A DNA stretch of 64,000 nucleotides from Amoebophrya sp. A120 (GCA_905178155.1 CAJINV010000001.1:6233860-6297859); one strand, 5' to 3'. Shown: positions 7,797 to 40,022, counted from the first letter of the stretch. The notes: a model not told the origin generated them from the sequence alone. Program-made: numbers and translations.

Positions 7797-8040
7797 TTTG
7801 GGAAATCCTTTCTCCTGGGCTTTTCGCATGATTTCCTTTGGGAAATCCCTTCTCCTGGGCTTTCCGCATGATTTCCTTTGGGAAATCCCTTCTCCTGGGC
7901 TTTCCGCGTGATTTCCTTTGGGAAATCCCTTCTCCTGGGTTTTCCGCGTGATTTCCTTTGGGAAATGCCTTCTCCTGGGCTTTCCGCATAATTTCTTTTA
8001 GGAAATCGCTCGCCCCTGGGCTTTCCGCGTTATAGGAAAT
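7797..8040. repeat. 40-bp tandem repeat, ~6 copies
   Basis: Unit TTTGGGAAATCCCTTCTCCTGGGCTTTCCGCRTGATTTCC starts at 7797, 7837, 7877, 7917, 7957 and (degenerate) 7997. Confidence 0.95.
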
Positions 8041-8220
8041 CTCTTCCTTAGGAGCCGGCCGCTGATCTCCGCGTCAACACGTACTGGAAGCAAGCTCCTT
8101 CTGATCTCCACTGCGAAACAGAGCGGAGACGAGCTCGGTGGCTAGGGTCTGGGTGGGATAGGGCCTGTCATAAGTATCGCGGTTTCTCCTTTGATATGGA
8201 TCAGAGGGTCCGCGATGTCG

Positions 8221-8317
8221 GACTTTTCTCCTTTGATATGGATCAGACGACTTTTCTCCTTTGATATGGATCAAAGGAGAAAAGTCCGGACTTTTCTCCT
8301 TGCAAAGGAGAAAAGTC
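8221..8317. repeat. Cluster of alternating inverted repeats (palindromes)
   Basis: GACTTTTCTCCTT and AAGGAGAAAAGTC alternate. 8274-8301 is a perfect palindrome and 8249-8286 a hairpin. Confidence 0.9.
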
Positions 8318-8352
8318 CGCTGGATTGATACCAGAGCGAGCAGCTCCTGGTC

Positions 8353-8520
8353 CAAATCCTTCTGTTTTTGCTTCAAATCTTTCCGTTTTAGCATCAAATC
8401 CTTCTGCTTTGGCATCAAATCCTTCTGCTTTAGCATCAAATCCTTCAGCTTTAGCATCAATTCCTTCTGTTTTAGCGTCAATTCCTTCTGTTTTAGCATC
8501 GATTCCTTCTGTTTTTGCTT
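8353..8520. repeat. 21-bp tandem repeat, 8 copies
   Basis: Consensus unit CAAATCCTTCTGYTTTAGCAT; on the minus strand it translates as (MLKQKDL)n. Confidence 0.95.
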
Positions 8521-9048
8521 TTTTCTAAATATCACACATGTTGTGATATCAGCAGCGCAATCGACTTTTCTCCTTTGGTCCTGTGATATCACGTGATATC
8601 ACGTGATATCAAAGGAGAAAAGTCTTTTTTCAAAGTTTAAAGACCCTTTTTTAAAATGAAACAACCGAGTTGCAAGAGTTAATTCCCGCGGCTTGCGCAT
8701 TGAATTGTGCCGGTGCTTTCTACACGCACTTCGGTTTGTTACTTGATGTTCGTGTTCCGGACTGTTGAGCAAGAGGCTCAGTAGGCAAGCGGAACAAAAG
8801 ACATGGCTCTTCCAGCATGTCGGCATTGATGAGCTTGTAACACATGGAGGGCTCCGGTGCTTGATCGGCCACACTCGAATTCATATCAAGCGGTAAACAC
8901 CACGAGAGTCGAGCCGTAGCCTTGCTCAGGTTCAGGAAAGACAAAGAGATGTAAGATGGGGTGGTGAAGGCGAGGGGCTGTGGTGGACGGGACTGCGGTC
9001 ATCTCAGATAAAAACGGTTTCAATTCCTCCCGTCCTCGCCCGCCCGTC

Positions 9049-15049: not shown

Positions 15050-15479
15050 GACATCACTAACTAACTATAACTTCCACGTCTGAGCAGTTGTCAAGCTCAA
15101 GAAGAGCTCCCGAACTCCCGACTTAATTTGCGGCGACCTCGTCAGCGTCAGGGGGGGGAAGCTTTAGTGTGCAGCAGCACTTTTTTGAAGTTCACAGCCT
15201 TCTTCACCTTTGACATTTATCTTATCAGCACGAACGTTTGTTTACTTTGGCGATTGCAGCCATCACCATGCCAATAAAAGTCTCAGTGCTCATATGCTTT
15301 GCTGCAGCCGCCTCCACAACAGATCTGACGCAGTTTTGGCAGGTGAAGCATTAGTTAAAGGTAGTTGCGCGTCGTCGTGTATGTGACGCACATGGAAGGC
15401 GAATTTAGCAGATTAAAACGGAAATTCCATCGACGACCAGACCACCAAGAAATCGATCAGGGCAGGAAGCCAAGACATT

Positions 15480-17000
15480 TGTGTTCGGAATTGATTTACG
15501 CGACGAATTTACGGCATGGCAGCCACAGTGCGCTTCGTTTGAGCCTGACGGCGAGGCGGCGCCATGGGCATTTGTTAGGCATTTTGCACCGTTCTCGTCC
15601 AAGAGAACGCCACGGGCCGCAGTGTTCGCGGCAGGCCTCCGAGCTTCTGCGCTTGCCTGCCCAGACTTAGCCGGGAGCGCGTCCTCCCTCGCCCCCCGCC
15701 TTGGCGCCCCCAAGTACGCGGGGGCGGCCGCCTGCAAATGCGCAACCAGGGCCGACCGTGCGGCGCAAACGAAGACGGGCAGGGCCAAGACTTGCGCGCA
15801 CCGGCGCGGGAGCTACGGCCCAGCAGGGTGGCGATTTGGACCTGGGCGGGTGTGTTGCTTGTTATTTGGCCGGCCCACCTGCGGGACCGACGCGCCTTGG
15901 AAGGGTTTCAGCCTCGACGGCGCCCCTTATGCGTGGCCTGCGAACTTGGACGACCCCAGGCGCTACAGCGCGGGCGGATTTTTTGTTTTACAACGAAGAG
16001 CGAGGCCGGCCGGGCCGGCGAGCTAGCAGTGGCGCGCCAGCGCCGCAGCTGATAGCCCCAATGTAATTGGCGGCGCCATTGGTGGCGCAGGCGGAAGCCA
16101 TGGCGCCCAACTTCGCCGCGGCCGGGCGGACCGGGGCGAAAGGGGCCGCCGCATTGCAGAACGCCGGCGGCATTGCGGCGGGGGGGGGCCGGCAGCCCGC
16201 GGGGGGGCTTTGGTTTGTTCTTTGGCGGCGCGCGCCCAGCGCCGGAGGAGTTTGGCCGCCCGCCGGCCCCCCATTGCCCGCTTCCTTTCGGAGAAGTCCT
16301 TGGCGGCGTTATGGCGTGGAAGCAGGGCGGCCCAGCCAAGGGGGCGAGCGCGACCTGTATGGACGGTTTCGAAGTGGAGCAGGGCCCGGCCGAGGGCAGT
16401 GAAGCGGATGGATCGCAGCGATCGCCAATGCCGCCCGCGTTTCGAAAGCGCCGCAGGGAGATTGAGGGCGGTCGGCCCTGCCGGCCCAAGCATGCAGGGC
16501 CGGCCCGGGGGCCCAACAAGCGGCCCGGCGGTTTTGGCGGACGCCCGGCCCCCCTTTCATTCGCGCCGGCCGGCGCTATGGCCCGCCCCCGGCCCGCCCC
16601 CCGCCGGCACCCTGGTTGTTTCTCTTCTCCTTCCGCCGGCCCCTATTCTATTGCGCCCGCCTTTGGCGCGGCAGGCACGCAAGCACCCACAGCACACCGC
16701 CCTGCGGGCTGAACAGAACCGGCCCCGGCGCGCCGGCCGGCTTGGGATCGGGCGCAGCAGTCTGTGGGCGCAGCTGGAAGGCCGCCGCGCCGCTGCCCCT
16801 TGTTCTTGCTACCGGGCTGCTAGTGCCGGGGGCTGGTGCTGTCTAGTAACGTAGTGCCGCCTTGCCGTAGCTGGGCCGGTAGCCTGCAAGGCCAGTTGCA
16901 TTTTCAAGATTCGGCGCGAAAGAGCCGGCTCGGCTCGATTTGATTGCGTGTCAGCATGTCTGGGGCCTGGCCTCCCTGATCCCTGCACGTAGGATTGATT
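15480..17000. other. Very GC-rich degenerate segment (repeat or pseudogene remnant)
   Basis: Abrupt rise in GC with GCGC, GGGG and CCCC runs. The overlapping Ala/Arg/Gly/Pro-rich ORFs on both strands show no recognisable domain. Boundaries are approximate. Confidence 0.5.
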
Positions 17001-17593: not shown

Positions 17594-19097
17594 GCAGTTA
17601 TTTGTTGTGCCGAGGAAAGATATTCGAATTTTTACACGACTTTTTTACGCCATGCTGTTCAGGGGTGTTGGGCATCAACAGGTTGGTGACTGCTTTCTTC
17701 GCCGCTGGCGGTTTCTGCGTCTGCAACCACGTTTCCGCCTTGTACCTCCTCCAGCGACGAAGCGCATTGCTGGACATAATTCGGAGGTACAGTAGTTAAA
17801 ATCCCCATCTACTTAGTTGTGAGTTGTTTCCACTAGTTTACTGTGAACGTGAAGGTTAAAGAAGCGAAACCCGAAGTCGTGTTTTTCTTTGAAACACAAG
17901 CACGAAACTGACTCTTACCACAGGTACAACATGCGCAGTTGTAGGGACTGCACCAGCACCAGAGCAGGAACCGTATCAGGCGGCAGAAGTAACCGACCAT
18001 GTTGGACGCCCTTCGGCGTGGTTCATCACTCCGTTCATCGTTCTTTCGAATTATCCTTGCCAAGCTGCATCTTCGGGATTCGTACTCGAAAATAGACCGA
18101 ATGAAGATGTGTGTGGCAATTTTTCGTTGATTTCTTGTGCTGTTTTAGAAGTAAAAAAGTTTACCCTGAGCTGGTTGCGTTACATAGCAGCTTGCTGTTG
18201 CAAGTCAACATTCCTCCAGCCAAGCGTCGTGGCAGATCATGAATATGTTCCTTTTGTTGACAAGAGTTCCATCTACACCTTTCTCGGTCGGCAGTTTATC
18301 TCACGAGTCTACTCTTTCTGCATTGCTGCTGGGCGCGTCTTCCTCGTCCACTTTCAAATCGGTTGCAATCTTCAATACCACGGACGGTCTCTTTCGTTTT
18401 TCACTTTTCACGAGCGACCACTTGACCCTGCACGGGGAGGTCGTCAAGCGTATAAAGATGCAAACATTCTGTATCTAGTACAAACATGGGCGCATTTTTC
18501 GTGTGATCCATCTACTCGCTCCTCTCGTGATTTGATAGAGTCTCAATGCCTTAGGCTTTCCTTTTCCAATGTTTTAGTCAGTGTCTCTGTCTTTCCGCAA
18601 GGGTCGGCATTCGTGGATGTAGCTGCAAGTGCAAGTATTCGTCGAAACGTTTTTTTCTGCTGTCACACTCGTGGTCGTCATGGCGAAGATCTCATGCCAA
18701 AGCCAAACTGGTTAGAATTCACCGTGTAATACAAACTGCGGCAAAAGCATAGGCAAAAGCTGCAGTTGCCTCCTACTTACGTTTTTGAAGATCGTAGCAG
18801 AGCTTTTCGTTTCACTATCGTCGATCTTCATGTCCTCATCTTTGTTTGTGCATCATATTCCATTTTTCTTTTTGATTCGTGGAAACAGCTTTTTTTTGAG
18901 ATACCTCTCGCGGGACGGGGTTCCCGGGTGAGGTAGGAAGGGGCGGTCGTTAAGAGTAGGACACCTTAGTTAGTACATTAGAAGTTGGGCTTTAGGATTG
19001 TTTTCCGCCTAGGTTTTCTTGTAGTCTCGAGTCTCATCGCATTATTTTTCCGTTCTCATTACACTTAGACTTACCCAGCACCTTTGGAAACGCAAAC

Positions 19098-22000
19098 ATG
19101 AACGTGCTTCAGAACATGCGTATGTGGTCCGATGCGGGCTTCACGGAGGACCAGAAGCGGAAGCAAAACGACCTGCTGGAAAAGTCGAAAGCGCAGCTTC
19201 CGAAGCTCGGCCGGGCGTTCGACTTGAAGCACGAGGAGGGTCTGAAGAACGCGTACATTTTGAAATCCCGAGCCAGCGAGGCTTCCACCCGCACTCCCTC
19301 CGCGCGCAGTGAGATCAGCTCCCGCTATCCCACGAAAAAAGTGTTACAGTTACACATTTGTAGTCAATTCAGCAACACAAATTTCTCTGCATGAGCGAGA
19401 AAACTTGTAATGCAGAAATCCTACGGGAAAACGCCTATGATACGAGGCTTCTATGAGTATCCGGCATGACAGAGCTTGTCTGTCTTGCTTGGCCTGCAAC
19501 GCAATGTGTAACTGTCACACTTTTTTCTTGCGATACCCGCCCGGCAACCTCCTCCGGTGTGATGAGCACGCGCGCAACGACCCCCGCCGGCGTCTCGATG
19601 AGTATGAGCCGCGCGTCTTCTTCGAGTCCGACGAAAATGGGAACGAGGAATAGTGGGGCGTTCGCCAGGTCGGGCTCCAGTTCGAGAATGCAAAGCGGAA
19701 TCAAACGAAGCACCACTGTCCAGGCTGTCGCAGTGGAGCACGAACAGTATGTGGAGCAAATGCAGGCCTTGGGAGTGAACACCGACACGGATGTAAGTCG
19801 GCCCGGAACTGCGCCCGCCGGCAGTATATTTGGCTCTCTCAGCATGAACGCTAACCCATCTTCAGGAACAACTTCTTCAATGCGCCCGGGGTCCAGCATG
19901 AACTACAGTAGGTCCTCTAGAATAAACAATTACAGCACCAGTATGACCGCGAGCCGGTCTCAGTCCGCTTCAACTCGCGGAGGCGCGTCCAGCAGTGCCG
20001 CGTCCATGAGGTACAATTTTGACGCAGAAACCTTGGAAAAAGCGGCGGCACGCCACGACCAGAAGCGGAAGCTGCGACTAGGCGGGCCACGGAACCCGCT
20101 TTTCGAGGGGCACTGGCAGGTGTTTAAGAAGCAGTCGGTGGTTTCTTTGGAGCGAGAATACAAGATCGCCAGTAAGAAAAAAGTGGAGGAACGGAAGATC
20201 GTGCGGGATGCGCATTACGCGTTGGAGAGCCGCGAAAAGGGGCTGAACATGCCTCCGGAGATGCCGAGCACCGCCCGAGAGATGGCGATCGTGCGCGCGC
20301 GTCGGTGGCGCGATGAGGTTATGCGGCGGCGGATCCGGGACGACGTTGCGTCATTGTTCAACATGAATGATTTGATGCGCGACTTCGAGAAACGGGTCAA
20401 GAAGGTTCGGGAGAAACTTCTGAAGGCCCAGCTCGACCCGCAGATAATGAAAATTGCGGAGGCGCTCGCCGCCGCGGTGCCCACCGCAAATACTGCGAGT
20501 ACACCAACCGCCAGCAGTGGGAATCTCCTTCGGTTGCTCCAGGGAGACGACGACGGCAGGAACGCAGAGTTCTTGGATTCCATCGCTCGGCAGTGGCCGT
20601 ACGGGTACAAAACGGAGCTGTTCAAGTGGCTCGGGCGGTTGTTCAAGGGCGTGATCGCCGTGGAAACCGGCAGGAGTACTAGCCAGGACGAAAACAACAA
20701 AGCGGTCGTAAAGCAGACGAAATCGGTCCTCAGTCTTTTGAAAGCGAATCCGAAGCACGCGGGGCAAATTCAGAAGCTGTTCGCGATCATCGACCGGCAT
20801 TTCTTGCCGAAAGAGGAGGAATACATCGAAGATATCGACGAAGAGGCGGAACTGCTGAAGAAAAAGGACTTCAATCTCGAAGCACGGTTAGATGTGAAGG
20901 AGAAGCAGCGCATCGACGACATGCTGGCGCTGAAGCTGGGCGTGCATGCACCGAGGTGGAAGGGTTTCGGCGAGCCGATCTACGGCAGTCCGCAGTTTTA
21001 CGGCCTAGCGCCCGAGCCGGAGCCGCCGGAAGCGACGCCGGTGGTGTTGTCCGACACGAAAGAGTTCGAAAAGCGGGGCTTGGAACTATTCCGCAGCAGA
21101 CTTACCAGCTTCGGCACGGCGCAGGACGAGCGCAGAAACAACCAAGAGAAGGCGCGCGACGTGTACACGCAACTGCAGGAGGAGTCCGATTTCTACCGAA
21201 ACAGGAAAGTGCCGCCCTGCGCGTGGAACGCGAACGAGACGCTGCTGGGTTCCGTGTGGTACGTGGATTTTCTCTGGGAGGTGCTGGAGAAAAAGTCGTT
21301 GCAACTAGAGCAAAAGAAGGAGTTCGTCCGCTTGATTGCGCAGCAGCGTGCCATCGCGCGACGCGACCGGGACGTAAAATCTACGGTGGAAAACGTGGAG
21401 CTGTTCCCCGCCCGGCAAACGATGTTGGAACCGCTCGCGAAGGGGAAAGAGGAGACGCACGAGGAGGCGCTGGAGCGGATCCAGGTCAACGTGGACCTGC
21501 AGCGGGCGCGGACGAAAAAGCAGCTGTACCTGCAGCGGAGGCGGTGCCAGACCTCGCTGGGCCTGCTTTTCAACCGAAAGATCGACATGCAGGCGCTCCA
21601 GGGGTACCTGGCCCGGAACAAGTTTGGGGACGTGGACCAGTTCCTCAAGAACTTCCGCGAGTCCCACCCGAACTACCACCGTCCAGAATCGGCGGGCGGA
21701 AGTCTCCCCGGCGCCGAGGAGTCGGTGTCGTACACGATGGGCAAAAACATCTACCGCAAGTTGCACGAGGGCATGGATCAGCTGAAAAAGTCGAAGGCCA
21801 TCCGGAAAGGAGCCGCGGGGGTATTGCAGCGGGCGCGGAAGCGCTCCAGCAGTCGCGACGAGGAAACGACCGGGGACGAGGCAGCGGGTGAGGACGCCGC
21901 GGATGTCGGTCCGATCGCAAAGAAAAAGTACATCAAATCAAAATTTTTTTATTCGTGACTTTTTTCACGTGCCTTCAGGTTCAGGTTGCTATGATTGTAT

Positions 22001-25000
22001 TTGTGTCACAGGCGACGGGGCTCTGCGCTCCGTAGTTTTGTAAAATTTCATTGAGCCGGCGAAGGACTAACTGGCAGCGTTTTCACTACTTTCAGGCGTA
22101 GCCAGGACAAGGCTGGTGCACGGTACCTGCAGAAGTCAAGTCTCGTCGTGCCACGCGGGATTGTGAAAGCCTTGGTGGAGAGCAAGCACTCTGTAATGGC
22201 GATGATGGATAGCGGCGAAGAGACACATGACATGAAGGACCACCGGCAGAAGCGGCTGCTGGCCATGCCGAAGAGTGACCCGGTTCTGAAACAGCACCTG
22301 GAACGCGTTTTCATGAAGGTCTTCGCGCAGGAGATGAAGGCACGATCGATCGTCTTGACCGAAAAGCAAAAGTCGGGGTCTCCGTCAAGCACCGCTGAGG
22401 TACGAAGAGGAAGAAAGCGCTTATTGTTATTTCAACAAGATATGAAATTTGATTGGTCTCGTCTCTACTTGTTAGTTTTGCTGGCACCACGCAATGTCTA
22501 CTTCTCAACTAAAATCAAAATGCAAATCAGATCTCCACCTCCAGCATCACTTCGATGTTGCACCAGCTGCGGCACCTGGACGTGTCCGAGAAGCGCATCC
22601 AGCAGTGCCAGCAGATGGGCCTCTGCAACAGCGACTCCATGACGTACGACGAGTGGACGCAGTTTTACAACATGTACTGCCACTTGGAAATTGAGGACCT
22701 GGCAGTTTTGTTCCACCAGGCTGTCCGCGCGCGCCGACTGCACTCCGCGGCCATGCGGGCCTTGATGGATGACAAGCCCGACCTCGAACCGGTTCTGGAC
22801 GTTAAGGGGTTCTTGGCGTTGTTGATGCGCGGAAACAGCTGGAGCTTGCTCGGGGAGTCGTATTTGAACGACCTTGTGGAGGCGATTCGCGGGATCTTCG
22901 ACGATTGCGCTCCAACTACGCACAAAGTACACGTGCTCCGCGAGGAGGAGGAGGACGAGGAGGACATGTTGGGCGCGAACGTGAAGCTGCCGACCAGTCC
23001 GTCTTCGCCCGGTGGAGCTAGTGGTAACGTTATGTCGTCTACATCCCCGGCGAGCAGCACCAGGAAGACGAATTTGCGTCTCGGTGGAGGCGCAGGGGAG
23101 GTTGATGCCACTGATGAGGACAACGAAGACGGCGAGGAACAACCGGATGGTGCGTCGAAGCAACCGACCACCGGTGCGGAGTACGCAATCTCTTCCACGA
23201 TGAACCGACCACCGGTGCTGAGCAAGCGACGAGACAGCAAAACCTTCGTGGACGAAAACACGGGCGAAGTGTTCGAGATCGTGGAGCTGCGGACGATCAA
23301 CTTCGGGCAGTTCGCGCGCATGTACTACTACGCGGTGAAATCGCACGGGTTCAGTAGGGACGAAATGTCGGAAATCGAAGACGCTTTTGAGAAATTCCAT
23401 GCGAAATTCCAGCTCGAGGCAGCGGAAATCTCGGACAAGGTGCGGAAGCAGAAAGAGAAAATCAGGTTGCAACGCCGGTTCCAGATGCAGAGCCAGATCG
23501 GGCTGGAGTTCGACCCGAACGCGACCGCCTCGGAAACGGAGGCGGAGTTGGAGATGCGCATGCTGACGCAAGAGGAGAAGCTGGAGCGCTGGGCGGTCGA
23601 GAGCAGCGAGCGTGCGGTGCTGATCAACGTGAAAAAGAGCATAAGGCCCATGCTGAATTGGCTCGGGTTTGCGGCAGAGGAGCTCCCCGAAAAAGAGATT
23701 GACAAGCGGTTGGCGCAGGTTGTCACGCACGTGGGTGCGCAAAACAAATTCGGTACCGTAGACCTGGATGGACCGATTGACTTGATGCGCAAGATGCTCG
23801 CGGAGGGAACGGTAGTACCCCTTCCGAAGAAGGAAAGCGAAGCCCTGGCGACAGTTGCGGAAGAGCAAGAAGTTGAGGACAAGGCGGACGCAGGTTCGTT
23901 CTCGCTATTTTGCTTTTGGTTTTGACTGCGTAGTTGCTCTTCGCCGCATAAGATTATCTCGTGGTTATGTGTACAACTAGGGTAAGTCTAAGTGTCGAAG
24001 TAGAAAAGCTGAAGGGAAAATATCTGCATCCTCATGATTACAGTCTACGGTCGTCGCCCCCAATCGGGGAACAAGCCTTCCAAGATCCAGGAAGCCAAAT
24101 ATCTGCCACCGGAGGGCTTCTGCTGGTTCACTTTCCCGCAGACGGTTTACGCTTTGTCCTTGTTCCGGGAGTACTTCGCGCAGTCCGTTTGCGACCGGTT
24201 TATGCAGGCGGACGTGGACGGATCGGGCGGGGTGGACAGCGAGGAGTTGGCGAACATATTGTCGGTGGTAAACCAGAGCAGCGTGACGCAGGAGTTCCTG
24301 CAGGATTTGTACACGGACATCGGGAAGGACCTCGACGACGAGTTAACGTTAGAGGAATTCAACGAGGTGTACAAGTTGTACCGCACGCGGGCGGGATTTT
24401 CCAACAACGAGATTGTCGAGTTCCACGCGGCCTTCGACAAGTTTGCCGAGCCATTGAGTAAGTTAAAGCGAATCGAGGAAACAAAGAAGACAAAGCTGCT
24501 GTCACTCGTCAACAAAACCGCACCGCCCGAGGGGTCTGGAATGGCGAACGGACATACGAACGGTGCCGGTGCTGCTTCTAACGGCGCGGCCAACGGAACC
24601 ACCGCGGCAGCCGCCAGCGCGGCAAGCAGCCCCGGAGAACAAGAAGCGGCGTCAGCAAGTCCAACCTCTCCGCAACAGCCAGCTGCCGCAGTTGAGCAGA
24701 CAAAGAGCCGCAGGACGACTGCCAGCTCCGGTCACCAGCAACAGCAGCAGAACAAAAAAACACCGGGCGCACGCGGCGCTGATTCAGCGACTTCGAGCGA
24801 AGATGACGAGCAGGTTCTGGCTGACATGCAACAGGACCCGAATCTTCGCGGATCGAGAAGGAGCAGTCTGGCGACGAGCATCAGCGCAGGCGGCGGCGAG
24901 TTTGGTGGGTCCAGACCAGGATCGCCCTCCGGCAGGCACGTGAGCATTATGGACGTTCCCGGGAGTCCTCGATCGAGAATGAGTGGCAAAGGGGTGACCA

Positions 25001-26522
25001 CCAGCCAAATTTTTGGCAGCGCGTCGGGTGCGGCCTTGCTGGATGATGAACAGGACCAGGCCTGGATTGACGACATGCTGTTCGATCCGGAGACCATGCG
25101 CACGGTGAAGGACAACAAAAGCACAAAGCACATGATGAAAATGGGCTTCATGAAGCTCAAATTCGCGCGCCACTTGCGGAAAGCGCTCCAGGCAATCCGG
25201 CAAAGACCCGCACACCTGCAGCACGGCGGGTTGCAGCAGGCGCGGCACGATGAGCGCGACCGGGGGAACATTCAAAATAAGCAGGTGCTGTTTCTTGCGG
25301 TTTCGCAACTCGACAAGGTGTTCCGGTGGCTGGGCTACGACGCGATGCCGGACTATTTGATCCGAAAATCGGCGGAACTGGGGATCGACTTCGCGGTGGA
25401 CCGGTATGACTTCCTGAAAATCGCAAAAGCGGTGAAGGACGTGATGCACATGTCCTTCTCCTTCCGCTGGGCCCAAATATCCCACCTGAACCCCTTGGAC
25501 AACCAACGGTATTGCACCTTCGCCAGCTTGACGTCGATGTTGAAGGGGTTGGGTTACGCGACGTCAGTGGCCATGGCCAATCGGGCGGCGCTGGAAACAT
25601 GTACAAGCAACGAACAGACTTTCATATTCCAGATTTTCTTTGTTGAAATTGAATTTTCATCATCTCAAGTTTTGTTTATGATTTTCAAAATAAAAATGAA
25701 ACGCAAAAAATAAAACGAGGTCCCGCTCTGGATTGGATTCTGAACCGCGAGAACATCGACCCCGGCACCCTTGCCATGATGACGGTGAGCGAACCCATCG
25801 CGTGGCCCACTGACTTGAGCATGGTCCAAAATGAGGAGACGCGAAAGATGCTAAAGACGAGGCAGCGCGTTACCCAGCAACGCGCGCAACTATTGAAGAA
25901 CCGCCGGAGCAGCAGCAGTAGTGCCAGTTTGGGCTCGCATGACTCTATGCCAGTCGCAGCAGCCGCAGCTGTTCCGGTAGAGTTAGCAGACCGAGTAGAC
26001 GGTGAAGATTCATTTGACGTCGATCGGCAAGTCACCGAGGAGGTGGATGACGAAAACGAAATTCCAGCCCATCTGCCGGTCTTTGACCCGCGCGCGACCG
26101 CAACGTCTGTGAACTTCGATCCGGTGAGCACGAAGCAGGATTTGTTCGAGACGGTGTTGAAAGACAAGTGGATGTCGGAAAAGCAGTGCCGAGACGCGTG
26201 CAGCGCCGCACGAAGAATGGCGAAAGAGAACTACCAAAAGTACAGCGGGTTCTCGGACGTGGAAGTACTGGAATTCAAGCAGCAGTTCATGCGGCACGCG
26301 GTGCGGGTGAGCGACTTGACCGAGGACCGGGCGCTCTTCGGGTTCGGCCTCCGGAAGGTGCTGCTGGACCTGTTCCCGGATGCCACGCGAGACCCCGCGG
26401 TACACGCACTCATGGCGGATGTGCTCGATGCGGTGGACCGGGACCGGTCGGGAACCATCGACTTCGCTGAGTACCTGCAAATCATGCGGGTACACACGGA
26501 CGCGAAACAGAATCTGTTGTAG
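19098..26522 (+). CDS. Large (~2,200 aa) multi-EF-hand calcium-binding protein
   Basis: Six ORFs join in frame via the element-intron (19321-19540, 215 bp removed) and GT-AG introns 21928-22095, 22400-22530, 23894-24043, 25601-25719. EF-hand loops DVDGSGGVDSEE and DRDRSGTIDFAE. Confidence 0.8.
19326..19535. mobile_element. MITE-like introner element (TAT...ATA, TSD CCCGC)
   Basis: ~33-bp TIR TATCCCACGAAAAAAGTGTTACAGTTACACATT vs TATCGCAAGAAAAAAGTGTGACAGTTACACATT; CCCGC at 19321-19325 and 19536-19540; removal gives EISSRPATSS in frame. Confidence 0.92.
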
Positions 26523-27630
26523 GAGGATGTGGATGAAATCATGTTGCGTTCGTGATGGTGATGGAATCGGGAAAAAAACTCACGTTGAGCATGAGGCACA
26601 GAAGTAAATGAAATCGCTACCGAGGTGTACTAAGTTTTTCATGCAAGAAGATGAATAGATGATAGAACATACAAGGAGTACATGTGGAAGTACCGATGTT
26701 AATCGATGTGATTTCAGAATTTCAGTTTCGACTAAAGTTTCATTTATCAAAAGTCAAGCGTTCTCTGTATGCGAGTTTCATCTTAGATTCAGTTTCCTGT
26801 AATGTAGTTTTACGAAAATATGCACAATGCGATCGAAATACACGTAATCGTAATACTAGTTGTGTCAAGAACTGTATAAAATTTTTGTGATGTTTGGTCA
26901 TATTCATAAACTGTTTTGTTGTCGTTTGTGGTGCTTGTTGTACTTAGGTTTGTGTATCATACTGCTTTCCCTGGGACTTCTGTAGATCGTCGCACTTTTT
27001 TCTGTACACTAGAGCGATTTGCACGCTCCGCGTTAGCGCGTAATATCATTTGTAAAATTCAAAATACAACGAGGAGGAGGAGGACGCAGATGAGATCCAT
27101 TTGAAGGATCAGTAAAGCCTCAAATAAGCCAAACTTGCAGTTGCGCTTTGGCAGTTCTATCGGATGTCAACATAGAGATACTAGTGCGACGAGGAGCGAA
27201 TGCGAAACGGGAGCACTTCACGGAGTGAATAGGTACAGACGCACTTGGATCTTGGAGTGCGTGGGGGGAGGCTTTAACAGGTTGTCCAGGTGTAAAACAA
27301 GACATATGTGGGACGAGCGCAGTTCAGTTTCTATTTCATCTCCTGTCATCAAAGTTGCAAGCTCCGGCCGTGCATCAAAGACAAAGAAAAGGAAGGTGAC
27401 AATTATGCGGAATGAAGAAAAAATAAAAAAGTAAATGACCACGGCAAGAGCGACAAAGATCCAACTACTTTCCTTTTTAGTTCATGAGTAGAGGTAGCAA
27501 CATCATCAAGGAAGTGTATGTTTGATGTGACACTGACATGATGGCGCCGACGAAATCTTAGTGGTTCAGTGGACAAGCTCCTGTACCGCGACTCCTTCTT
27601 GGTTGATCCTCGAAGGCTTCCGAGGACAAG

Positions 27631-30600
27631 ATGGCGGACGATTCGGCACAACACCCCGCCTATCCAACTAAGCCTTGCCTCGCCCCCGCACTCGACTTCT
27701 ATAACCACGGCTCGAAAATCAAGATGCAGATGAAAAAAAGCAGAATGTCAAGATGCCATTGAACAATCAATGGCCGCACCACAGTTAGAGGTACTGTTAG
27801 TGGCATGATCGGCTGTCAGCTGCATGCCCGAATAAAATAGCCACAAGTGGGTGCGAGGGTAGGGGTTTTGATTGACTTGGATACCGCCGGGAGCACGATG
27901 CTCAATAAGATGACAGCGGAAAAGGTGCCCGCTCGGCAAAATGCGGAGCGGAAAATGGAGGATGGCAGCGAGGTGAGCTCGAGTTTTTACATGGGGGAGT
28001 TTGAGGTGTACGGCACCATGGATGAACCTTTGTCGAAATACGGTCCCCACACGCACTTCAACTACAACCCGATAGCCTTAGCCAGTCCCTTTGTCATATG
28101 GGAGTGTCAGGATTGAAATCGTCAAAGTTGAAATGATTTGTCATGCATAATTTATGCAGAGGACGCATTTTTCTTATTAAAATGCGATGCAAAAAGTGAC
28201 TCTATTGCAGAGGACGCACGGAAGGCAGATTATAGTCCTGGCAAGGGTCAAAAGGTGGACTGCTGACTTGCATGACAGAAGGCAGCTCTTTTGCCCTAAA
28301 CCGCGTGACAGACTCGCTTCCAGGACCGCGAAAATTTGTCATGCGCCGACTACAAACTGTAGGTCTAACTGGTATCGATTTTATGCATGACAAACTATTT
28401 CAACTTTGACGATTTCAATCCTGACACTCCCATATGTCATCGGACGGGTCGCACACACCATGTTTGCCAGCTGGGAAGTCTGGAAAAACGTCTTGATCGT
28501 GTGGACGTACTAAGATGATTTTTTCTGTTTTTATTAAATTCTCGGCCCGGGGCCGGCGCCGGGCACGAATATGATCAAGAACCATCTTCAACATAAGAAA
28601 ATAGTTGATATGGACGAGACGGATTCCCAGCATGCATAGTACGGTTGTGATTTTGTTTTTGATAAAACTAACTAAAAAGATTGATCAGGGAAATGAAAAG
28701 AGAAAAAAAAACCGCAGTATCATGGTTTTTGCCGCGGTCACAACTGCCATTTTGACGAAGGACCCGAAGCTATCAAATGCAAATATGTCTGGGTCCTCTG
28801 GGACATTGCAAGATTTGTCATGCTATAGTCTGGCGTGACTCTGAGCTCTGCATTGCATGGCCGCGGAGAGCTCCTCCTCCCTGTCATGCAAAAACGCAGT
28901 TGCTCATGCAGAACACGCAACTCAGAACCATGAAAAAAACTTGTCATGCTTGGCAGCGCATTATAGTGAGCTCACTTCTCCCTTCCTTGCGTCACAAGTT
29001 TCCACACCCAGACATATTTGCAATGCATAGAAGCACGCACAGGATCACGAGATCTTGGACAAGATAATTGCGTTTTTCCGAGCTTTCATTGCGTTTATGT
29101 TGGGTTTATGCAATACAAATTTCCCGTACATGTACAACATGCATCAGAAATTTCACAACCTTAGGAGTAGAAGCAATTTGTCATGCTGCTGAGAATTTAA
29201 GGAAAAGTTTGTCATGCAGAGACCGCATCTCTATGTGTACGGGAAATTTCCTGTGGATAGGGTTTGTACGTGTCCCACGCCGCTGGGAGGTTCCACACCA
29301 TCGTGAACGAAATCATCAACTTATTCGACCACATTCGACAGCTGCAAACGGACTTAATCATGTACGGTGTCCCGGAAAAGGAGCTGCATATCGTGAGTGA
29401 TGTTGTTCAACATTTTCAGCTTATTTAGAAGCTTTTTATCACGAACACGATGGCGCTTGTTGAATTGCATCGTGCTGCTCCCAACTGAAGATTGATGGTC
29501 AGTTATAAACTAACTCAAACATCAATACAATATCAATCTACAACAGATCGAGCGGTACGGGGTCCTCTCCATGCGCATCTTCCACCAAGAGCTGAAGGAA
29601 ATCCACAATGACCCGCGTATGCGGAAGCAGGAGTGGAGCTATTTTTTCGACGATCTGGAGGAAAAGGGGTACCTGCAAGAGAAGGCGGAGAGAACGAGCC
29701 TCGAGAACAATCTAGTTGAGTCCAACGCGGACTGCTCCACGCTGTGCTACCTGTGGATCCAGAACCTCCTCATGCGGCTTGCAGTGGATGGCTACGTGCC
29801 GCCGCCACCATCGCCATCATTCAACCAGCTAGTAACCGAGGGGAAGCGCCAACCGCTGGCAAGTATCCAGCTGTGCAAACAGCTCACCGCGTTTCAGATG
29901 CCGTTCGGGTACTACATAAGATGACTTCTGCGTAGATATCGTTTGATTCATCTTCGAGTTCAGCGAATTACATCCAAGAGCTCGTGGTTTAGTTAGAAAA
30001 AGACCTGCTGGAGAAATGTGTTCATGCTAGTACACCAGCGTTGGCATGGAGTTTCAGTTACAGGATGCTGCACCCGCTCCTGACCAAGAATAAATTGAAA
30101 ATCATTTCAGCTACGCCCACATGCTAGCAGTGTTGATCCACTTGAACAACTGGCTGATGGGTCTTTCCGCCGGAGTGGCCATGGGCCTATGCATTTTGCA
30201 AAACAGCCGCATCGCTTACACGCATCTTGACATGCTCATGCAGGCGTATCAATACATAAAATTGAGTGCTGGGATGACGATGAACATGAACTCAAGTAGC
30301 GAATAAACGCTGGAGAAAGGAACAAGGGCATGCAGCCTTGTTCATCATGGGATGCCATAAGAAAATCTTAGGGAGGAAAAACAAGGAAGCAGTTTTCTTG
30401 AAAATAAAATTATCATGTCCACGAAGAATAAATGCGGCAGTTTTGCAAAGGATAAGGCTTTAACGTGAGCAACTTTGCGCGACAACTGTTCAAGGAACAT
30501 CGTTTTCCGATGACTCCGATAACGAATATCTCGGCCAAGTTCCTGTACGGGGGTCTCTTCCCCTTCTTCTTCCAGGGCTTCTTGCTTTCGGCGCTGATGA

Positions 30601-30963
30601 TGTCGTCGCCGTCCCTATCATGAGGAAAAAGAACCCCGTGCCAGCCCCGTGCCCGTACTTCTAAAATACATTGACGCTTATCATGCTGGATTAACGATTA
30701 GCAAGCTTTAGCAAGAAAACAAATGCAGCAGCAGATGCATAAGCATCTGGATTGGTTGTTCTGGCTGCGTCGGGACTGCCGCGGGTTTTTCCTTTTGATA
30801 GTCCCACCATTTACCGATCGCCCAGATGATCCGCACTCTGGAGCACGACCTGCTCGCGCAAGAGCACATCGCGAAGCACCCGCACCTGTGGGATCGCCCC
30901 TACCTGAAGCCGCCCCCGGAAGACAAGAAGAAAAAAAAGAAGGATGACTCGGAAAAAAAGTAG
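27631..30963 (+). CDS. Bestrophin-family anion channel, ~11 exons
   Basis: Reconstructed protein contains FIAFMLGLYVSHAAGRF, RYGVLS, QMPFGYAHMLAVLIHLNN, PFFFQGFLLSALMMSSP. Five element-introns plus GT-AG introns 28507-28717, 29393-29546, 29909-30110, and an ambiguous region 30244-30523. Stop TAG 30961-30963. Confidence 0.85.
27661..27883. mobile_element. MITE-like introner element (TAT...ATA, TSD CCGCC)
   Basis: Ends TATCCAA...TTGGATA with weaker subterminal complementarity; CCGCC at 27656-27660 and 27884-27888; removal gives MADDSAQHPAGSTML; in-frame stop if retained. Confidence 0.85.
28097..28434. mobile_element. MITE-like introner element (TAT...ATA, TSD TGTCA), youngest-looking copy
   Basis: ~54-bp near-perfect TIR (TATGGGAGTGTCAGGATTGAAATCGTCAAAGTTGAAAT..TTTGTCATGCATAA); TGTCA at 28092-28096 and 28435-28439; removal gives ASPFVIGRVAHTMF. 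Confidence 0.95.
28771..29029. mobile_element. MITE-like introner element (TAT...ATA, TSD GAAGC)
   Basis: 24-bp TIR TATCAAATGCAAATATGTCTGGGT vs TATGCATTGCAAATATGTCTGGGT; GAAGC at 28766-28770 and 29030-29034; removal gives KDPKHAQDHEILDK. Confidence 0.92.
29107..29259. mobile_element. MITE-like introner element (TAT...ATA, TSD GGGTT)
   Basis: TIR TATGCAATACAAATTTCCCGTACA vs TATCCACAGGAAATTTCCCGTACA; GGGTT at 29102-29106 and 29260-29264; removal restores the bestrophin motif FMLGLYVS. Confidence 0.92.
30616..30800. mobile_element. MITE-like introner element (TAT...ATA, TSD GTCCC)
   Basis: TIR TATCATGAGGAAAAAGAACCCCGTGCCAGCCCCG vs TATCAAAAGGAAAAACCCGCGGCAGTCCCG; GTCCC at 30611-30615 and 30801-30805; removal gives MMSSPSHHLPIAQM. 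Confidence 0.9.
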
Positions 30964-32228
30964 GCGACACGGACTGTCGCGCAAATCACTTGCTTAAAAA
31001 TACAAGTGACCATCGGGCGGGTGGGAATCAAGAACGAAGGACGAGAATTTCGCCGTCCGCAAGAGGAGCCTACATGGATATCTGTGGTTGAGTAAGACTG
31101 ATGATCTTTCACTTTAACTAAAGTGCCGCCAAGAAAAGAACAAAGAAATCAAAGATTCTTTGACGTCGTGTCAGAAAAGCTCACAGCAGGTTCAAGAATC
31201 GAAGTTGCGCCAGGCTTTGAAGGTGATGTAGCAGTGTTAATACAGATGCACATGTAACAAGAAAATCGCACTCGTCTCGCTTTTAGATAGTCTTCCTAGA
31301 AGATACGCATGGGAATTGTAATCGAATGAAACACACGAGAAATAATTGACAGACGCTGGTATCGTGGCATGATCATGATGAATATGTACTCTGTCTTCAA
31401 CATCAAGTACACACACAAAACTTTAACTTTAACTTTGTCAACAAGCCTACAAGGCAAAAAGTAGTCGTAGTCCTTCTTTTCTTCAACAATTTGAGAATAC
31501 AGCAAAGCAAAGTTTTTCGGTGTTACGTGTAGGTTTTTAAAGGTCTGCTCAGTCGCAGCTCTACCAAATGCAAATGACGTTTCGTTTTTTATCACCAAAT
31601 GAGCCTGTAAAATTCTTCACTCCAACTTCATAACGAACGCTTCTAAGAGATTAAGGTAAATGTGAACAGCTGACGAGAAGGAAACGCCTCGAGGTTCGTC
31701 TTGGTATTTTGTGTTCCCTCTCGTGGAATTGCTAATCGTAGCCTCGCAACGTCGACGAGGAGTCTAACAGGACACACTAAGGACCACTGTCGGTCGTGTA
31801 TGTTGGAAGCAGATTCAACAGATCGCATGCTGTGTAAGTATGGACCACGCGGACCAAGATATATAGTGCGTGGAAACGAAGGAATGCGAATGTGACGAGG
31901 AAGAAGTACTAGAACCTCAAACAACGCCCGACCTTCTTCAGATGCTTCAACTAGGCGAGGCTCCACGTTTCTACTTCGGTCTTGACTAAACACTCCCCGC
32001 AGCCCGCGGCCACCAGTGCACCTCCTTCCTCGTATTCGTTTACCGCAGTACTACGAGTGTACAACTTGAGGTTAGTTTATACAGGTGACAAGATTTATTT
32101 TAGACATGATTTGTCTCCAATGAATTGTCAATCCCAGTTTAAGTCTAGCCCAGCGCAAGAAAGATCTTTCCTGTCAGGCTTTTTATCCAAGAAGAAAAGG
32201 AACAACGCGGGCAAGCGCAAGAACGAAA

Positions 32229-34098
32229 ATGGCAGCAACGTTCTCTACGAGTAAACAGGTGATAATTCCTGAGGGCCGCGGCCGGGTGCGAAATTTTGTT
32301 GGTACCGATGCGGGCCAAGTGACGCTGTCTTCGAAACACGACCTGGGTCGCGTCGAGCAGGACTGGTCAGAGTTTGACCAAACGCGAACGCTTGTCAAGG
32401 GCGCAATAACGCAGGCGGTGCGCGATTTCCAACAGAACTCTGCACACGAAAGTTCAGGCAGCGTGCCGGTGCTAGTCCGCCAGGACGATTCCCTAGATTC
32501 CACCGCTGCTGCAGCGGGCGCAGGCGGGGGAACAAATGTCAAGCCGGGAGGTATGCTCCGAAGACCTTAGAAACAGGAGTTTGTAATGGTTTGATCTTGC
32601 TCGAAGTGCCAGTGTCGTGTCTCTTTGGAAACTTCTTGATGACTTCATCAAGTTCCTGCACAACAGAGCAGCTGCACTCTCTCATAGTTATCTTTGTCCA
32701 TGATTCACTCAGGCCCTCATGCTGCCGTTGGCCGCAAGCCTAAGACCGGCGAAAAGTTTGACCCCGACGCGTCCTACAGTTACAGCGAGAAGTTTTACCA
32801 ACCGGGAAAAGGCGGTGGCTCCCGGTCACACAACGTTAGCCAGGAACTTTCTCGCAGCAGCTGCAGCACGCAGTACGTCGGGCAGGGCTCCGCGAGGAGG
32901 CCGCACAAGGCCGGTCCCGCTCCGGGACAGTATCAGTGGAAGGACGAAGTACACTTGACAAGACCCGGGCAGTTCAGCATTGTCGTGCCGGACCGTAGCA
33001 AGCTAGATCCCAATGTAAGTTAAAGTCTTCATGAGCTGCATTTACAACTTGATCTTGATTTCCATACTCCTTGCATTGCTGCTTTCCCTTTCCCTGAAGA
33101 TTCTAATCGCGGTGCTGGATGTGAATCCCGAATTCAGATGAAAATCTATGTCGAAATATCCCTTGTCGCAGGTTGCTGCCTGGGTATCTGCAAGCACAAG
33201 CGAGACGTTGAAGCCACCGCCGGGTGCATACGGTGATCTTTCGAAAATAAAGCCGCAGGGTGGGGCTGTGAAACTCCGCACAGTGTCTCTCGGCGCGTCC
33301 AAGGCAGAACGAACGGCGCCCATATGAAAGTGGAGAACTGCAGCTCTCCTCCCCATCCGCTCTCGAAGGGCATTGACATATTGAAGAAGATCAAGGTATT
33401 GAACTACAAAAAAGCAACAACTCGCGACGCAATCACTGCCCAGGTCAAAGCTCTTTGATGCAAGCCAGGGGGACGAGGGGGAGTCCGAGTTGTGCACTTT
33501 CATATCCGAAGGCTTTCAGTAACGACCTGATGTACAGACTACCGCCGCTGTTTGGAACTTGGAGGCATCCCACAATTCACGTCGCACAGGGTTTCTCCGT
33601 CCAGAGCTGCGAGCGGAAATTCCTATCGTATTCATTTTCCTAAGCACTATTTACTTAATAAGATTTGTTAGATCATGATGTTCCCTTTCGAAATCGAAGC
33701 GTTGGTGGTATGCAAATTATGTCAATGAAACTTTGATTGCCTGCTAAAGATTTTCCCAATCCTTCTAAATACTTATGCGTGGCACCTTTCCCAACTGTAT
33801 CTGTTGACAGTGAAGCATACAAGTCCAAATAAAGTAGAAACCAACGCAAGCTCAAAATCTTTCCAGCGCACGCGAGGACAGTTGGTTGCCGCTGCAGACC
33901 AGTAACCAGACGCCGGGCCCTGGAGAGTACGCGAATCCACGGTGGCTGGAAGGAAAGAAAAAGAGCACGCTGCTCGGCCACTTTCACAACCCGAAGAAGG
34001 GCCCGGCGTTCGGGCGTCGTATCGACAACTTGTCGACGCTGCGACCGTCCTGGATTCCAGACACCTTCTCGGTACGGCACTTCCGGAGTATCACGTAG
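32229..34098 (+). CDS. SHIPPO-repeat / ODF3-like (flagellar) protein
   Basis: Repeats PAPGQY, PPPGAY, PGPGEY. GT-AG introns 32551-32712, 33015-33171, 33260-33443, 33628-33866 keep the frame to TAG 34098. Confidence 0.7.
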
Positions 34099-35310
34099 GA
34101 ACTCGAACTCGTCGATTGGCCCGCATAATTCTCGCTGCTTGCGCCTTAGCAGCGTTTAATTATGTTTGTTTCCATTTCCTCCAAGTCCAACATGGGCATT
34201 GTAATTGTATGATGATAGGCGCCGGCTTTCTTCTGTCACCAGCAGAGCCAACTTACAGCAAATGAACCTGCTGCTCGCGGAACAGTTTCTGCCCCTGTGA
34301 CTGTGTGTAAGATTCGCATTATCGTTGAGTAAAGCAAAACAGAAAACAGAGAGTCGAATCATGCGACACCGCATGCGAGAACAAGAAGGACGAAAAGGAA
34401 GATCATTTGATGTTCTACACCTGGAAAAAGCCTCCAATATTGGCCGTTTTTTTGTCATCAACGCTTCCGACATCAAAAACAAGTCAAAGTTTGGGCTAAG
34501 AAAAAGAAAACCGGATATTAGTATGGGTGTGCTTGTTTCAGGTGCGCATTGATTGGTCGTCAGTCGGTGTAGTTTTTCGTCCGCCGTTGATCTGCTAATT
34601 TTCCGCGGCTCCTCCAAGAACTTTCCGTTCATCAACTACATCTTTTGCTGGTCAGAGAATCACTATTATGCCATGATGGTGCTATTTTTGCTAGTCCTAG
34701 TGGTTTCGCCCCGTGGTGTCGTGGCCTTTGTTTTTTCGCTTTCGCATTCGTAGGTGTCGTGATGGTGATGATGCATAAACAAAAACGAAGGGTCATAGTA
34801 TGAACAGTCGTTTTTTTTTGTTCAGGTGTCTCCTGGTCGTAAATTGAATCGGTGGGTTTTTTGTTTTGATTGATTGCACACCTATTGTTGCTGACGCCGT
34901 CGACAGAAACATCTCTTGAATGTCAGATGTGTCTTTTGGTTTTGCGAGTAGAGTACCCACCCAGCACTTCTAATCAAAGACAAGGAAACAGAAAGCGCCT
35001 AAAAACCGCCGCAGACAGCGCAATGGAATCCCAGCAAAACATATAACAGATACAGAAAACACGCGTCAAACTGAAATTTTGCAAAAGGAAAAATAAGAAT
35101 AACAGCAACGGCTTCATCTACTTGGCCTTACGTTACAACTGTGCTCACGGTTACCACGCTTAGTCGTTTTATTCAACATTCGGTCTACGTCTCCGTCAAC
35201 ATATCTGCACTTCAATAGCTCGTCGTGATCGTGACAGGCCAAAATAAAGCTATCGACTCTAATAAAAGATACTGCTCATCGATCCTCGAGATTGAAAACA
35301 GATTTAGAAA

Positions 35311-37085
35311 ATGACAGCGGCAACATCTTCTTCCGCACGTGGAGGGAGCAAGGGCGTTTCCCCGCGGCGGGGCGGCGGCACGCCGCGATCCCAGGGCGCC
35401 GGAGGTGGAGCGGCGAAAGGAACCGCTGACGACAAGAAGGCAAGCAAAGCAGCCGCAGGTCAGGCCTTAACAACGCCAACCTCCACTCCGCGTAGTCCCA
35501 CGGCGAACAATCGTGGAAGCGGCTGGGACCGACTCACTAGTGACAGTTCAACTGCCACTTCTCCGCTGGAATCCGCCCTGGAGATGCTGAAGCACCCGGC
35601 CGTGCTGATTGTTCTGGTCGTGGTTCTGGTTGTCTTCGGCCCGTCCCAGCCGCTCACGCCCGAAGCGCAGGACCGGATGGTGAAGGCCATTGTGGAAGAG
35701 CAGAACAGCGGGAAGTTCGCTTCCACGGAGGACGTGCAGATCCTGGAAAAAAACCTCCACTCTGAGATGGACAAACGCGCCACGACGGAGGAAGTGCAAA
35801 CTCTGAAAGACAACCTGCAGGACGACCTGCGCGCGGTGTTGGATACACGAGTGGCAGAGGTTACCGCTGCAAGTACCGAGACTTTCACCCAGTTTTCCGA
35901 TACCTGGGGCTCCTCTCTGTCGAATGTCACGGTAAGCTGCGCTGGTGGTGGTGCTCCTGCTGTTCGTTTGATTATTGCATGCTCTCGATATTAATGACAT
36001 TTTTATCATAATCAAAATCATGTGATATATACTAATACTACACACCCACGATCATGTTTTCATCGACGATCCACCACAGGAGAATGTCGAGAGCTTGACT
36101 TCCCGGGTGACCTCGCAACAAGAGAGCAGCGCGAAGCAAAGCGGGCTCTTGACAGAGCTGCAGGATACCATCACGAACTTGCAAACCGAAGTGCAGCAGT
36201 TGCGCGAAAAGCTAGCGGAGGTGCCAGCGCTGGTCACAACTTCTCACGAAGGGGCTGGTGCCAAGACCTCTCGTCCTGCTGTTGGCGAACACTCGGAACC
36301 CTCCCCAGCAACATGCGGTGTGATTTCATCCAACACGGCAGTCGCGCGCCTGAACTGGGCCTCGAGGAGCCTCGGCGCCGCGATCAAGAATGCCAGCCCG
36401 GCCCGGGGCGTCGGCACGTGGCACAAACCCCTGAACCTGGTCGGGCAATTCGTGCTCCCGCAGGAAACCCTCGCTAAGATGACCCTGCGAACCAGCAAGA
36501 CGGCGGACGAACTGTTGCTGCCGACGCCACCCATTCCCGGCGAGGCGTTCTCAACCAAGCTGCCAGGTAGTGTTATTGCAAGGCAGGATGAACGTCTTCT
36601 TGGTTCTTGTATGTCATGTGCGACACTTGCTTCTTGAAGCTATGCGTTACAATTACAACTTCTACAGCTGTTGTAGCCCCCCGTGTCACCGCTAAGTCAC
36701 TAACTACCAGTTTACCAGCATTGAAAATGATGAACCGTCACTTGAGTCCAACATCAAACTTCCAGGCTTCGTGCATGTGAGTCTCGGCCTACCCCTGTCT
36801 CGCGTGACCAAGGTGGGCCTGCGCCACCTGATCCCTGCCCTCACGCCCAACCCGAAGTCGGCGCCGCGGGAGTTTTCCGTGCAGGCAGTTTCGCAGAACA
36901 AGACGGAGAATGAGCTGGAGACACATCAGAAGAAATTTAACTTCGTGTTCCAGGAGACGCTCGGGCTGCAGGTGTTTGACGTGCAGTTTCCCTCTCCGGT
37001 AAAGGAGTTGCGATTCGACTTTCACTCCTCCTGGGGGACCGACTACGTCACCCTGTTTCGACTCGAAGTTTACGGGGAGGTGTAG
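35311..37085 (+). CDS. SUN (Sad1/UNC-84) domain nuclear envelope protein
   Basis: Basic N-terminus, TM (AVLIVLVVVLVVFG), coiled coil, then NWASRSLGAAI, SAPREFSV, WGTDYVTLFRLEVYG. GT-AG introns 35932-36079 and 36567-36765. Confidence 0.88.
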
Positions 37086-37595
37086 GTCGAGCAAGGACCT
37101 AGCTTTCTTGCACTCGAAAGCGAAAAGAGGATCGCAAAACTTGTACAAAATCCATCTAACAACATGATGTAAAGTTTTTTTCGAAGCGAGCCCGAACCTG
37201 TGTCGCTGAAGGGCTTTTTTGCAACACCCTGCTGACCTGTTTCTGTGCTGCTGGTTGTATGATTTATTGTTTGTGCAGCAACATGATGAAGTATCAAGTC
37301 GAGCGTCTGGTTGCGCTAGCTCGCATTTGTCACACCGCGCACACCTGCCGAATTTTGTTTTTTGTGTGTAGCTGTTCGCCGTCGAAGTTTTCTTCTAGTT
37401 CATTGTCCAGTCGTCAACGTCATCCTGCCCCTGCATGCTATGTATTTTTCGGTGTCTACTGCTTGTGGTGTTTCTATCGGGAGATAAGGAAGAGTAAGTT
37501 TTTTTGGAACAGGTCGAGCGTTCTTCGTGGATCCAATTTGATGTCTTGCAAAGAAACTGAGTGGATTCTGAACTCCGCCCATCAATTTGTCCAGG

Positions 37596-39569: not shown

Positions 39570-40022
39570 GACGTAGACGTTGGGCGGTGAGCTTGACGGG
39601 ATGAACTTGCTGCAGATTCATTTTTAATCGTTTCATCATGCTGCAAAGACTTTTACCACCAGAATCAAGCTTGCTTCTTACGCATCAACGATGTGTCAAC
39701 ATGTTGAAGATCCAAAGTAGCTGCGACAGAGGTGGCGAACCGGACTGGCCTCCTGGTAGCGGAAAAAAATGTTCCGGTCTGGGGCCATGAAGAAAAACGG
39801 CAACCACCAGATTTCGGTTTGCAGCAAGAACATTATTTCACTCATCATCTACTTCATCTGCTATGCAGCAGCACTTTCACGGTGTGTACATTCTGTTCGG
39901 TTGTTGGTGTGTATAGTCATCAAGATGTCGTGAGATTCATTTTTTGGTCACCGCCTAGAAGAGGGTCTAGGGCTACCTAGTTGAAATCCGTGGTCGTCCT
40001 CCTCCAGTGAAAAGAAAAGAAG

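Follow-up and report, generated by a model that had tools for sequence, protein, structure and literature searches.

Exact removal from RNA of TAT...ATA introners in Amoebophrya sp. A120, probably at one fixed register

Introduction

How an intron can be removed to the base when it carries no splice signals is the question raised by a stretch of DNA from Amoebophrya sp. A120 (64,000 nucleotides, hereafter the window), in which short elements that start with TAT and end with ATA interrupt coding sequences. Tens of thousands of elements are concerned. As the first-pass annotation of this DNA had noted, repeat-flanked introners have been reported in Amoebophrya, and the parts of the literature consulted settle neither how they are removed nor which transposase moves them. 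In the sections examined of Farhat et al. (2021), 29,850 repeated introns of A120 were grouped into 1,954 families, and the position of their borders was left unknown (PMC7789003). These introners were described there as hairpins with a mean length of about 240 nt, RNA support and no coding capacity, bordered by direct repeats of 3-5 nt and with a repeat start made up of TAT, seven bases and AAA. Gozashti et al. (2025) distinguished 58 introner families in A120, and in 32 of the 58 family rows most are DNA elements with terminal inverted repeats, of unassigned superfamily, 100-400 bp in length and with mixed non-canonical ends (PMC12130899). One A120 family, number 38, has integrase-like homology (PMC12130899) and is a lead for the mobiliser, with no link here to TAT...ATA ends.

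Results

The elements and their anatomy

The six elements listed by the first-pass annotation (E1 to E6, Table 1) had been described correctly in their coordinates, lengths (153-338 bp), TAT and ATA ends and exact 5-bp duplications. Terminal inverted repeats, which had been claimed for each of them, are present in all six, but that of E2 is weak (16 of 30 positions matching, with a score of 3, below the cut-off of 6). The count of six was incomplete, as E7 and E8 had been overlooked; E8 was predicted by a sequence scan before its splicing was seen in RNA-derived contigs. The direct repeat at the borders is exact over 5 bp in six of the eight elements and matches at 3 of 5 positions in two. Pairs of TAT and ATA up to 400 nt apart with an exact 5-bp flank were observed 10 times, against a mean of 1.49 and a maximum of 5 in 100 local dinucleotide shuffles, and such pairs with a terminal-repeat score of at least 6 were observed 5 times, against a mean of 0.02 and a maximum of 1. 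Scans for TAT..ATA pairs without the duplication filter gave mostly noise.

To call the six elements a family, as had been done, overstates their relatedness: blastn found no match among them, and what they have in common is their ends and a short motif. The published repeat start (TAT-N7-AAA) is found at both ends of E1, E4, E5 and E6 and at one end of E7, while E2, E3 and E8 have TAT alone, without the AAA part. All eight elements are clustered in three adjoining genes (window 19000-34100), and window 34100-64000 yielded no further strong element of the TAT...ATA type. A search of the window against Rfam returned no matches. Elsewhere in the window, five genes with Pfam matches lie on the plus strand within 35308-62957, and at 15400-17000 the G+C content rises to 71%, with many frames open and no second copy of this region in the window.

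Table 1. Elements, host genes and other genes of the window, with the exon positions joined in RNA-derived contigs
Feature	Position	Strand	RNA joint (nt skipped)	Description
E1	19326..19535	.		210 bp, from TAT to ATA; belongs to a high-copy family; 33-bp inverted repeat; duplication (19321-19325 / 19536-19540) exact
E2	27661..27883	.	27655 to 27884 (228)	223 bp; inverted repeat weak; exact 5-bp duplication; low copy
E3	28097..28434	.	28091 to 28435 (343)	338 bp; belongs to a high-copy family; 54-bp inverted repeat; duplication exact
E4	28771..29029	.	28765 to 29030 (264)	259 bp; exact duplication; end would be AG at register -1
E5	29107..29259	.	29101 to 29260 (158)	153 bp; exact duplication
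E6	30616..30800	.	30610 to 30801 (190); runs X3, X5, X6	185 bp; exact duplication; low copy
E7	30188..30454	.	30183 to 30456 (272); runs X3, X5, X6	267 bp; duplication matches 3/5; additional to the six listed earlier
E8	33323..33504	.	33321 to 33509 (187); runs X3, X5, X6	182 bp; duplication 3/5; beyond the span annotated earlier
Host gene of E1	19098..26522	+		EF-hands in downstream frames; linkage of all exons in one gene inferred; RNA contig cover partial
Host gene of E2-E7	27631..30963	+		encodes a bestrophin-like protein of 436 aa; its 10 exons are separated by six elements and three GT-AG introns
Host gene of E8	32229..34098	+		E8 and three GT-AG introns; 409-codon open frame once spliced
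Sad1/UNC	36696-37082	+		Pfam match
Aspartyl protease	37572-39566	+		Pfam match
Glycoside hydrolase 5	40011-41273	+		Pfam match
Phosphotransferase	54079-55332	+		Pfam match
Short-chain dehydrogenase	61303-61911	+		Pfam match

Copies elsewhere and a shared internal motif

The repeat of E3 was found at 13 loci in one assembly of a metagenome collection. These relatives were found by the repeat alone; 12 of the 13 have an exact 5-bp duplication, and all 13 occupy different target sites. A wider scan of the loci gave 56 elements, of which 34 have a duplication matching at 5 of 5 positions and 20 at 4 of 5, a count that is biased because the scan favoured duplications. At these loci, an open frame of 673 codons is obtained when 4 elements are removed, and others of 571 codons with 6 elements, 517 with 5, 441 with 8 and 553 with 3. 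Copies of the E3 type lie in genes in both orientations, and at the loci, too, the elements are clustered, with up to 8 per gene. Orientation was assigned to 34 of the 56 (22 were dropped), which together with the eight of the window gave the 42 oriented elements used below; in these, positions 11, 12 and 13 are A in 30, 29 and 40 elements. The depth of DNA run X1 in bins with E1, E3, E4 and E5 was 7,709-35,358 (23,272 over E1) against about 26 elsewhere, and was near this baseline for E2, E6 and E7, although depth is not copy number.

The first-pass annotation had taken the elements for MITEs, and they do look like non-autonomous DNA transposons: as in MITEs, they are short and non-coding, with inverted repeats, a target duplication and many dispersed copies. 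No transposase was found in the window or at the 13 loci. A look for long copies encoding a transposase had been suggested as a check; one long copy, with ends of the E4 type (L001:1672-2926; 1,255 bp, about five times the usual length), has no frame longer than 98 codons and gave no Pfam match in the 4 frames tried. Two of the repeat patterns had no matches in viral contigs.

The motif GCAT(G/C/T)ACA occurs 43 times in sense and 49 times in antisense in the 42 elements, and 11 of its 14 matches in the window lie inside the 1.8 kb of elements. It is present in the four high-depth elements (E1, E3, E4 and E5) and absent from E2, E6, E7 and E8, which are spliced, and for this reason we read it as what looks like a candidate mobility signal, which would also serve as a handle in the search for a transposase. 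The possibility that it is a branch point was considered and rejected, because the motif is strand-symmetric and is missing from these four spliced elements.

A separate intergenic stretch of about 2.9 kb (window 5696-8624) carries a 13-base repeat three times at its left end and seven times at its right end, in both orientations, with tandem arrays of 40 bp and 21 bp inside. Its ends may be TAT and ATA, with a 4/5 flank match, which could be due to chance, and it is possibly a longer transposon. Its 463-codon minus-strand frame has no Pfam match, and none of the 13 loci contains the 13-base repeat.

Removal from RNA and retention in DNA

The elements break coding sequences, as the first-pass annotation had stated. 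Removal of E1 together with 5 nt gives 881 open codons, and there is a stop at codon 98 when the element is kept and at codon 84 when the element alone is removed. In the bestrophin-like gene, splicing of all elements gives the 436-aa product, and keeping any one of E2 to E6 reduces it to 43-386 aa. The spliced product is identical to the public protein P0001, which its source labels as Amoebophrya sp. A120, and aligns to the A25 protein P0002 at 277 of 422 positions; at four of the six element junctions it aligns without gaps to both P0002 and P0003, and at a fifth to P0002. The Pfam Bestrophin match of this product (E 0.001) is under the curated cut-off, and the likeness is weak. For the host gene of E8, one exon was scanned and gave no family match.

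In seven of the eight elements the sequence skipped in the contigs is exactly the element plus 5 nt; the junction of E1 had no RNA contig cover. A single contig of run X3, with a depth of 244, contains the skips of E2 to E7 as well as those of three GT-AG introns, and since the exon lengths sum to the coordinates of this contig, no bases were inserted. Runs X3, X5 and X6, seen as contigs only, represent 2 samples from 1 study; their RNA nature is an automated guess, there is no cover between genes, and we took them as RNA because six GT-AG introns are skipped in them. The RNA check that had been proposed for the elements thus found, on contigs, exact removal without GT-AG and without cryptic sites in five of the six claimed elements, E1 being uncovered. 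The statement that no register gives GT-AG or GC-AG also held: each of the six elements has 6-7 equivalent registers, and neither pair of ends occurs in any of these. The broader statement that the elements lack a canonical 3' splice site held for five of the six at the register inferred below, but not for E4, which would end in AG. It is almost certain that the elements belong to the known A120 introner class and are removed at the RNA level.

Structure-guided splicing had been inferred by the first-pass annotation with excision from DNA as its alternative; precise removal at the RNA level was confirmed, and the alternative was not. If the elements were excised from the DNA of expressing cells, in the manner of the internal eliminated sequences of ciliates, their transposon anatomy and the precise restoration of the target would be explained, but two ungapped DNA contigs of run X1 (19506-28122 and 29117-31400) pass through E2, E7 and E6, no X1 contig has an empty site at the six skip joints checked (among the joints listed), and a DNA contig of run X9, from a separate study, runs from exon into E7. 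Since the elements are retained in DNA contigs, bulk excision from DNA is not supported, and we consider it highly improbable, bearing in mind that rare excised forms would drop out of contigs and that the assembly may itself have been built from X1. Alternatively, the genes could be broken and the skips could have arisen when reverse transcriptase switched template across the hairpin, between the direct repeats. A hairpin plus a direct repeat is the known anatomy of such artefacts, and the elements have it. However, only 1 base is shared at the skip of E8 and 3 at that of E7, the intron-covering contig has a depth of 3.2 against 244, and the protein is conserved with its orthologues across the junctions, so that hardly any credence is left for template switching.

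The register of the cuts

The true cut sites of such an intron are masked by the duplication, within which the borders can slide, and imperfect duplications reveal them. Register -1 denotes an intron from one base before TAT to four bases after ATA. Exact duplications permit offsets from -5 to 0, and to +1 in two elements, whereas E7 permits -4 to -1, with -3 reading GC-AG, and E8 permits only -1 and 0, neither of which is canonical. The one register common to the seven RNA-tested elements is -1. A single fixed register at -1 is probable, on the assumption that one register serves all elements and with two informative introns (E7 and E8). The intron at -1 consists of the last target base, TAT...ATA and then four target bases, and its ends in the eight elements read CT-CG, CT-GC, AT-TC, CT-AG, TT-GT, CT-CC, CT-GC and AT-CG. 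Register -4 with a TAG acceptor where the duplication starts with G (three of six elements) was also considered and is excluded by E8. The kept copy inferred from mismatched duplications without RNA was uninformative (15 cases), and the mismatches were not clustered by position.

It is rather unlikely that there is no single register and that the cuts slide within the duplication, with canonical-like ends being used where they are present. Such sliding would agree with the GC-AG reading of E7 at -3, with a cut of E8 at -1 or 0, and with the legend to Fig. 3 of Farhat et al., which describes the splice sites as varying in position with respect to the hairpin (PMC7789003). On the other hand, -1 fits all seven tested elements, and each imperfect junction appeared in one contig form in three runs, although minor forms may drop out of contigs. 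The case for a fixed register would be weakened if E7 were an ordinary GC-AG intron at -3, as E8 alone leaves -1 or 0. Among the predominant site pairs of Table S4, 9 of 9 in A120 start with NT and 9 of 9 in A25 start with TT (PMC7789003); these pairs fit -1 but depend on the choice of the aligner and are not independent. Literature searches, with most subscription papers outside their coverage, returned no report that fixes the register, or of lariats or circles, in Amoebophrya. If the -1/+4 geometry is fixed, without preference in the flanks, it predicts the junctions of lariats or circles, which would distinguish a relaxed spliceosome from a second system.

Discussion

Splicing signals and the mechanism of removal

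With the introns cut at -1, G is found at intron position +1 in 8 of the 42 oriented elements and AG at the end in 4 of 42, and neither G nor AG is favoured in the flanks. GT-AG or GC-AG would be possible in any register in 2 of the 42 elements, and the branch-point-like sequence YTRAY turned up in 13 of the 42 tails, where shuffles gave 21. At one of the 42 (L010:2297-2613), the insertion target makes a perfect GT-AG intron at -1. End-to-end pairing is predicted for all eight elements of the window (16.6-25 expected pairs) against fewer than 1 expected pair in five of six GT-AG introns, and the donor-like end of the elements is buried in the predicted stem. For the GT-AG intron at window 28507-28717, too, end-to-end pairing is predicted, with 14 expected pairs, and this intron is possibly an old element. 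Two of the six confirmed GT-AG donors read GTATGC and GTATTC. Go-back joints were seen at none of 6 joints, in contigs, which cannot show the absence of circles.

The best explanation, which taken as a whole has about an even chance of being right, is that introners are kept in DNA and removed from RNA with guidance by the hairpin at fixed offsets, likely by a relaxed major spliceosome. A cut-and-paste transposase making a 5-bp staggered cut would insert the elements into exons in either orientation, and this putative enzyme would recognise the TAT end and the repeated internal motif. Pairing of the two arms is predicted within the pre-mRNA and would draw the exon ends together. The intron at -1 would start with N-TAT(G/C), which is donor-like with only position +1 free, and would end in four arbitrary target bases; since these last four bases are arbitrary, the 3' cut would have to be measured from the end of the element. 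One duplication copy's worth would depart with the intron, and therefore the protein would be unchanged and exons could tolerate many insertions.

Whether the spliceosome catalyses this removal is, in our analysis, close to evenly balanced. A relaxed spliceosome is slightly favoured because its components have been reported, because the end at -1 is like local donors, and because Fritillaria provides a precedent. In the sections examined, 83 spliceosomal proteins out of 89 were found in A120, as were U2, U4, U5 and U6; U1 proteins are listed in Table S6, and 15% of the canonical introns have the same anatomy (PMC7789003). Against this reading are the scarcity of G starts, of AG ends and of YTRAY, and the position of the donor-like end within the predicted stem; the conservation of TAT at both ends is explained by transposition alone, and guidance by the hairpin is weakened by the one GT-AG intron that likewise folds end to end. 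A Euglena-like pathway with the same register is a close rival because no selection toward G or AG is seen in the flanks and because the predicted stem encloses the donor. In that pathway, which we consider possible though somewhat doubtful, a nuclease independent of the spliceosome would measure from the hairpin and leave overhangs of 1 base and 4 bases, after which the exons would be joined by a ligase, as has been proposed for the nonconventional introns of euglenids. We know of no such enzyme, which counts against it, as do the local-donor-like end, the listed U1 proteins and the canonical introns of the same anatomy. The absence of preference for G at +1, a terminal AG or a branch motif (n=42), the base-exact removal, the strong predicted pairing and the tolerance of both orientations all argue for it. 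It is also supported by the introns of euglenids, which are delimited by inverted repeats lying at fixed offsets and can be released as circles (PMC12501133, PMC11282704), and by A120 itself, in which U1 snRNA was not detected (PMC7789003). The more general proposal that most Amoebophrya introns are removed by a spliceosome-independent, ruler-like pathway, which would cut at -1/+4 from the TAT...ATA hairpin and ligate the exons, is unlikely in our estimate; if true, any insertion of one transposon lineage, with its ends, motif and 5-bp duplication, would be silent in the protein.

Comparison with known systems

The elements are A120 introners of the class already described, and their novelty had been overstated by the first-pass annotation, since A120 introners are published and the host gene was already public with the elements removed. 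Nothing separates them from the introners in the sections examined of Farhat et al.: E1, E4, E5 and E6 match the published motif at both ends, and here, too, the ends are joined by an inverted repeat (8-20 nt or longer), which is weak in E2 (PMC7789003). Beyond those sections are the pointer to register -1, the uniform 5-bp length of the duplication and the motif common to different families. This analysis adds E7 and E8, a constraint on where the cuts fall that can be put to the test, and a candidate motif for mobility.

Expressing nuclei of ciliates no longer carry the internal eliminated sequences in their DNA, whereas the A120 elements are kept in DNA contigs, and a U2-type spliceosomal intron has a GT or GC donor and an AG acceptor, a pair of ends possible in 2 of the 42 oriented elements. 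The nonconventional introns of euglenids likewise have inverted repeats near their ends and slidable direct repeats, with no GT-AG, and their fixed offsets were found, as here, from introns that cannot slide (PMC12501133, PMC11282704). However, the euglenid signature, N3CDG...CHGN5-6|R (PMC12501133), is unlike the N-TAT...ATA-NNNN of A120 at -1, and circles have been shown for euglenid introns (PMC12501133, PMC11282704), whereas the introns of A120 are known here from contigs only. A term search of PMC13149111 and PMC13326754 returned no mention of Amoebophrya. The introns of Fritillaria borealis are, like those of A120, derived from MITEs, with inverted repeats, duplications and efficient removal (PMC11282704), and in the sections examined the non-canonical introns of Fritillaria are handled by a modified spliceosome (PMC13326754). 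In the sources as consulted, F. borealis has the preferred ends AG-AC and AG-AT and a duplicated U2AF, whereas the A120 elements show no preference beyond their own TAT.
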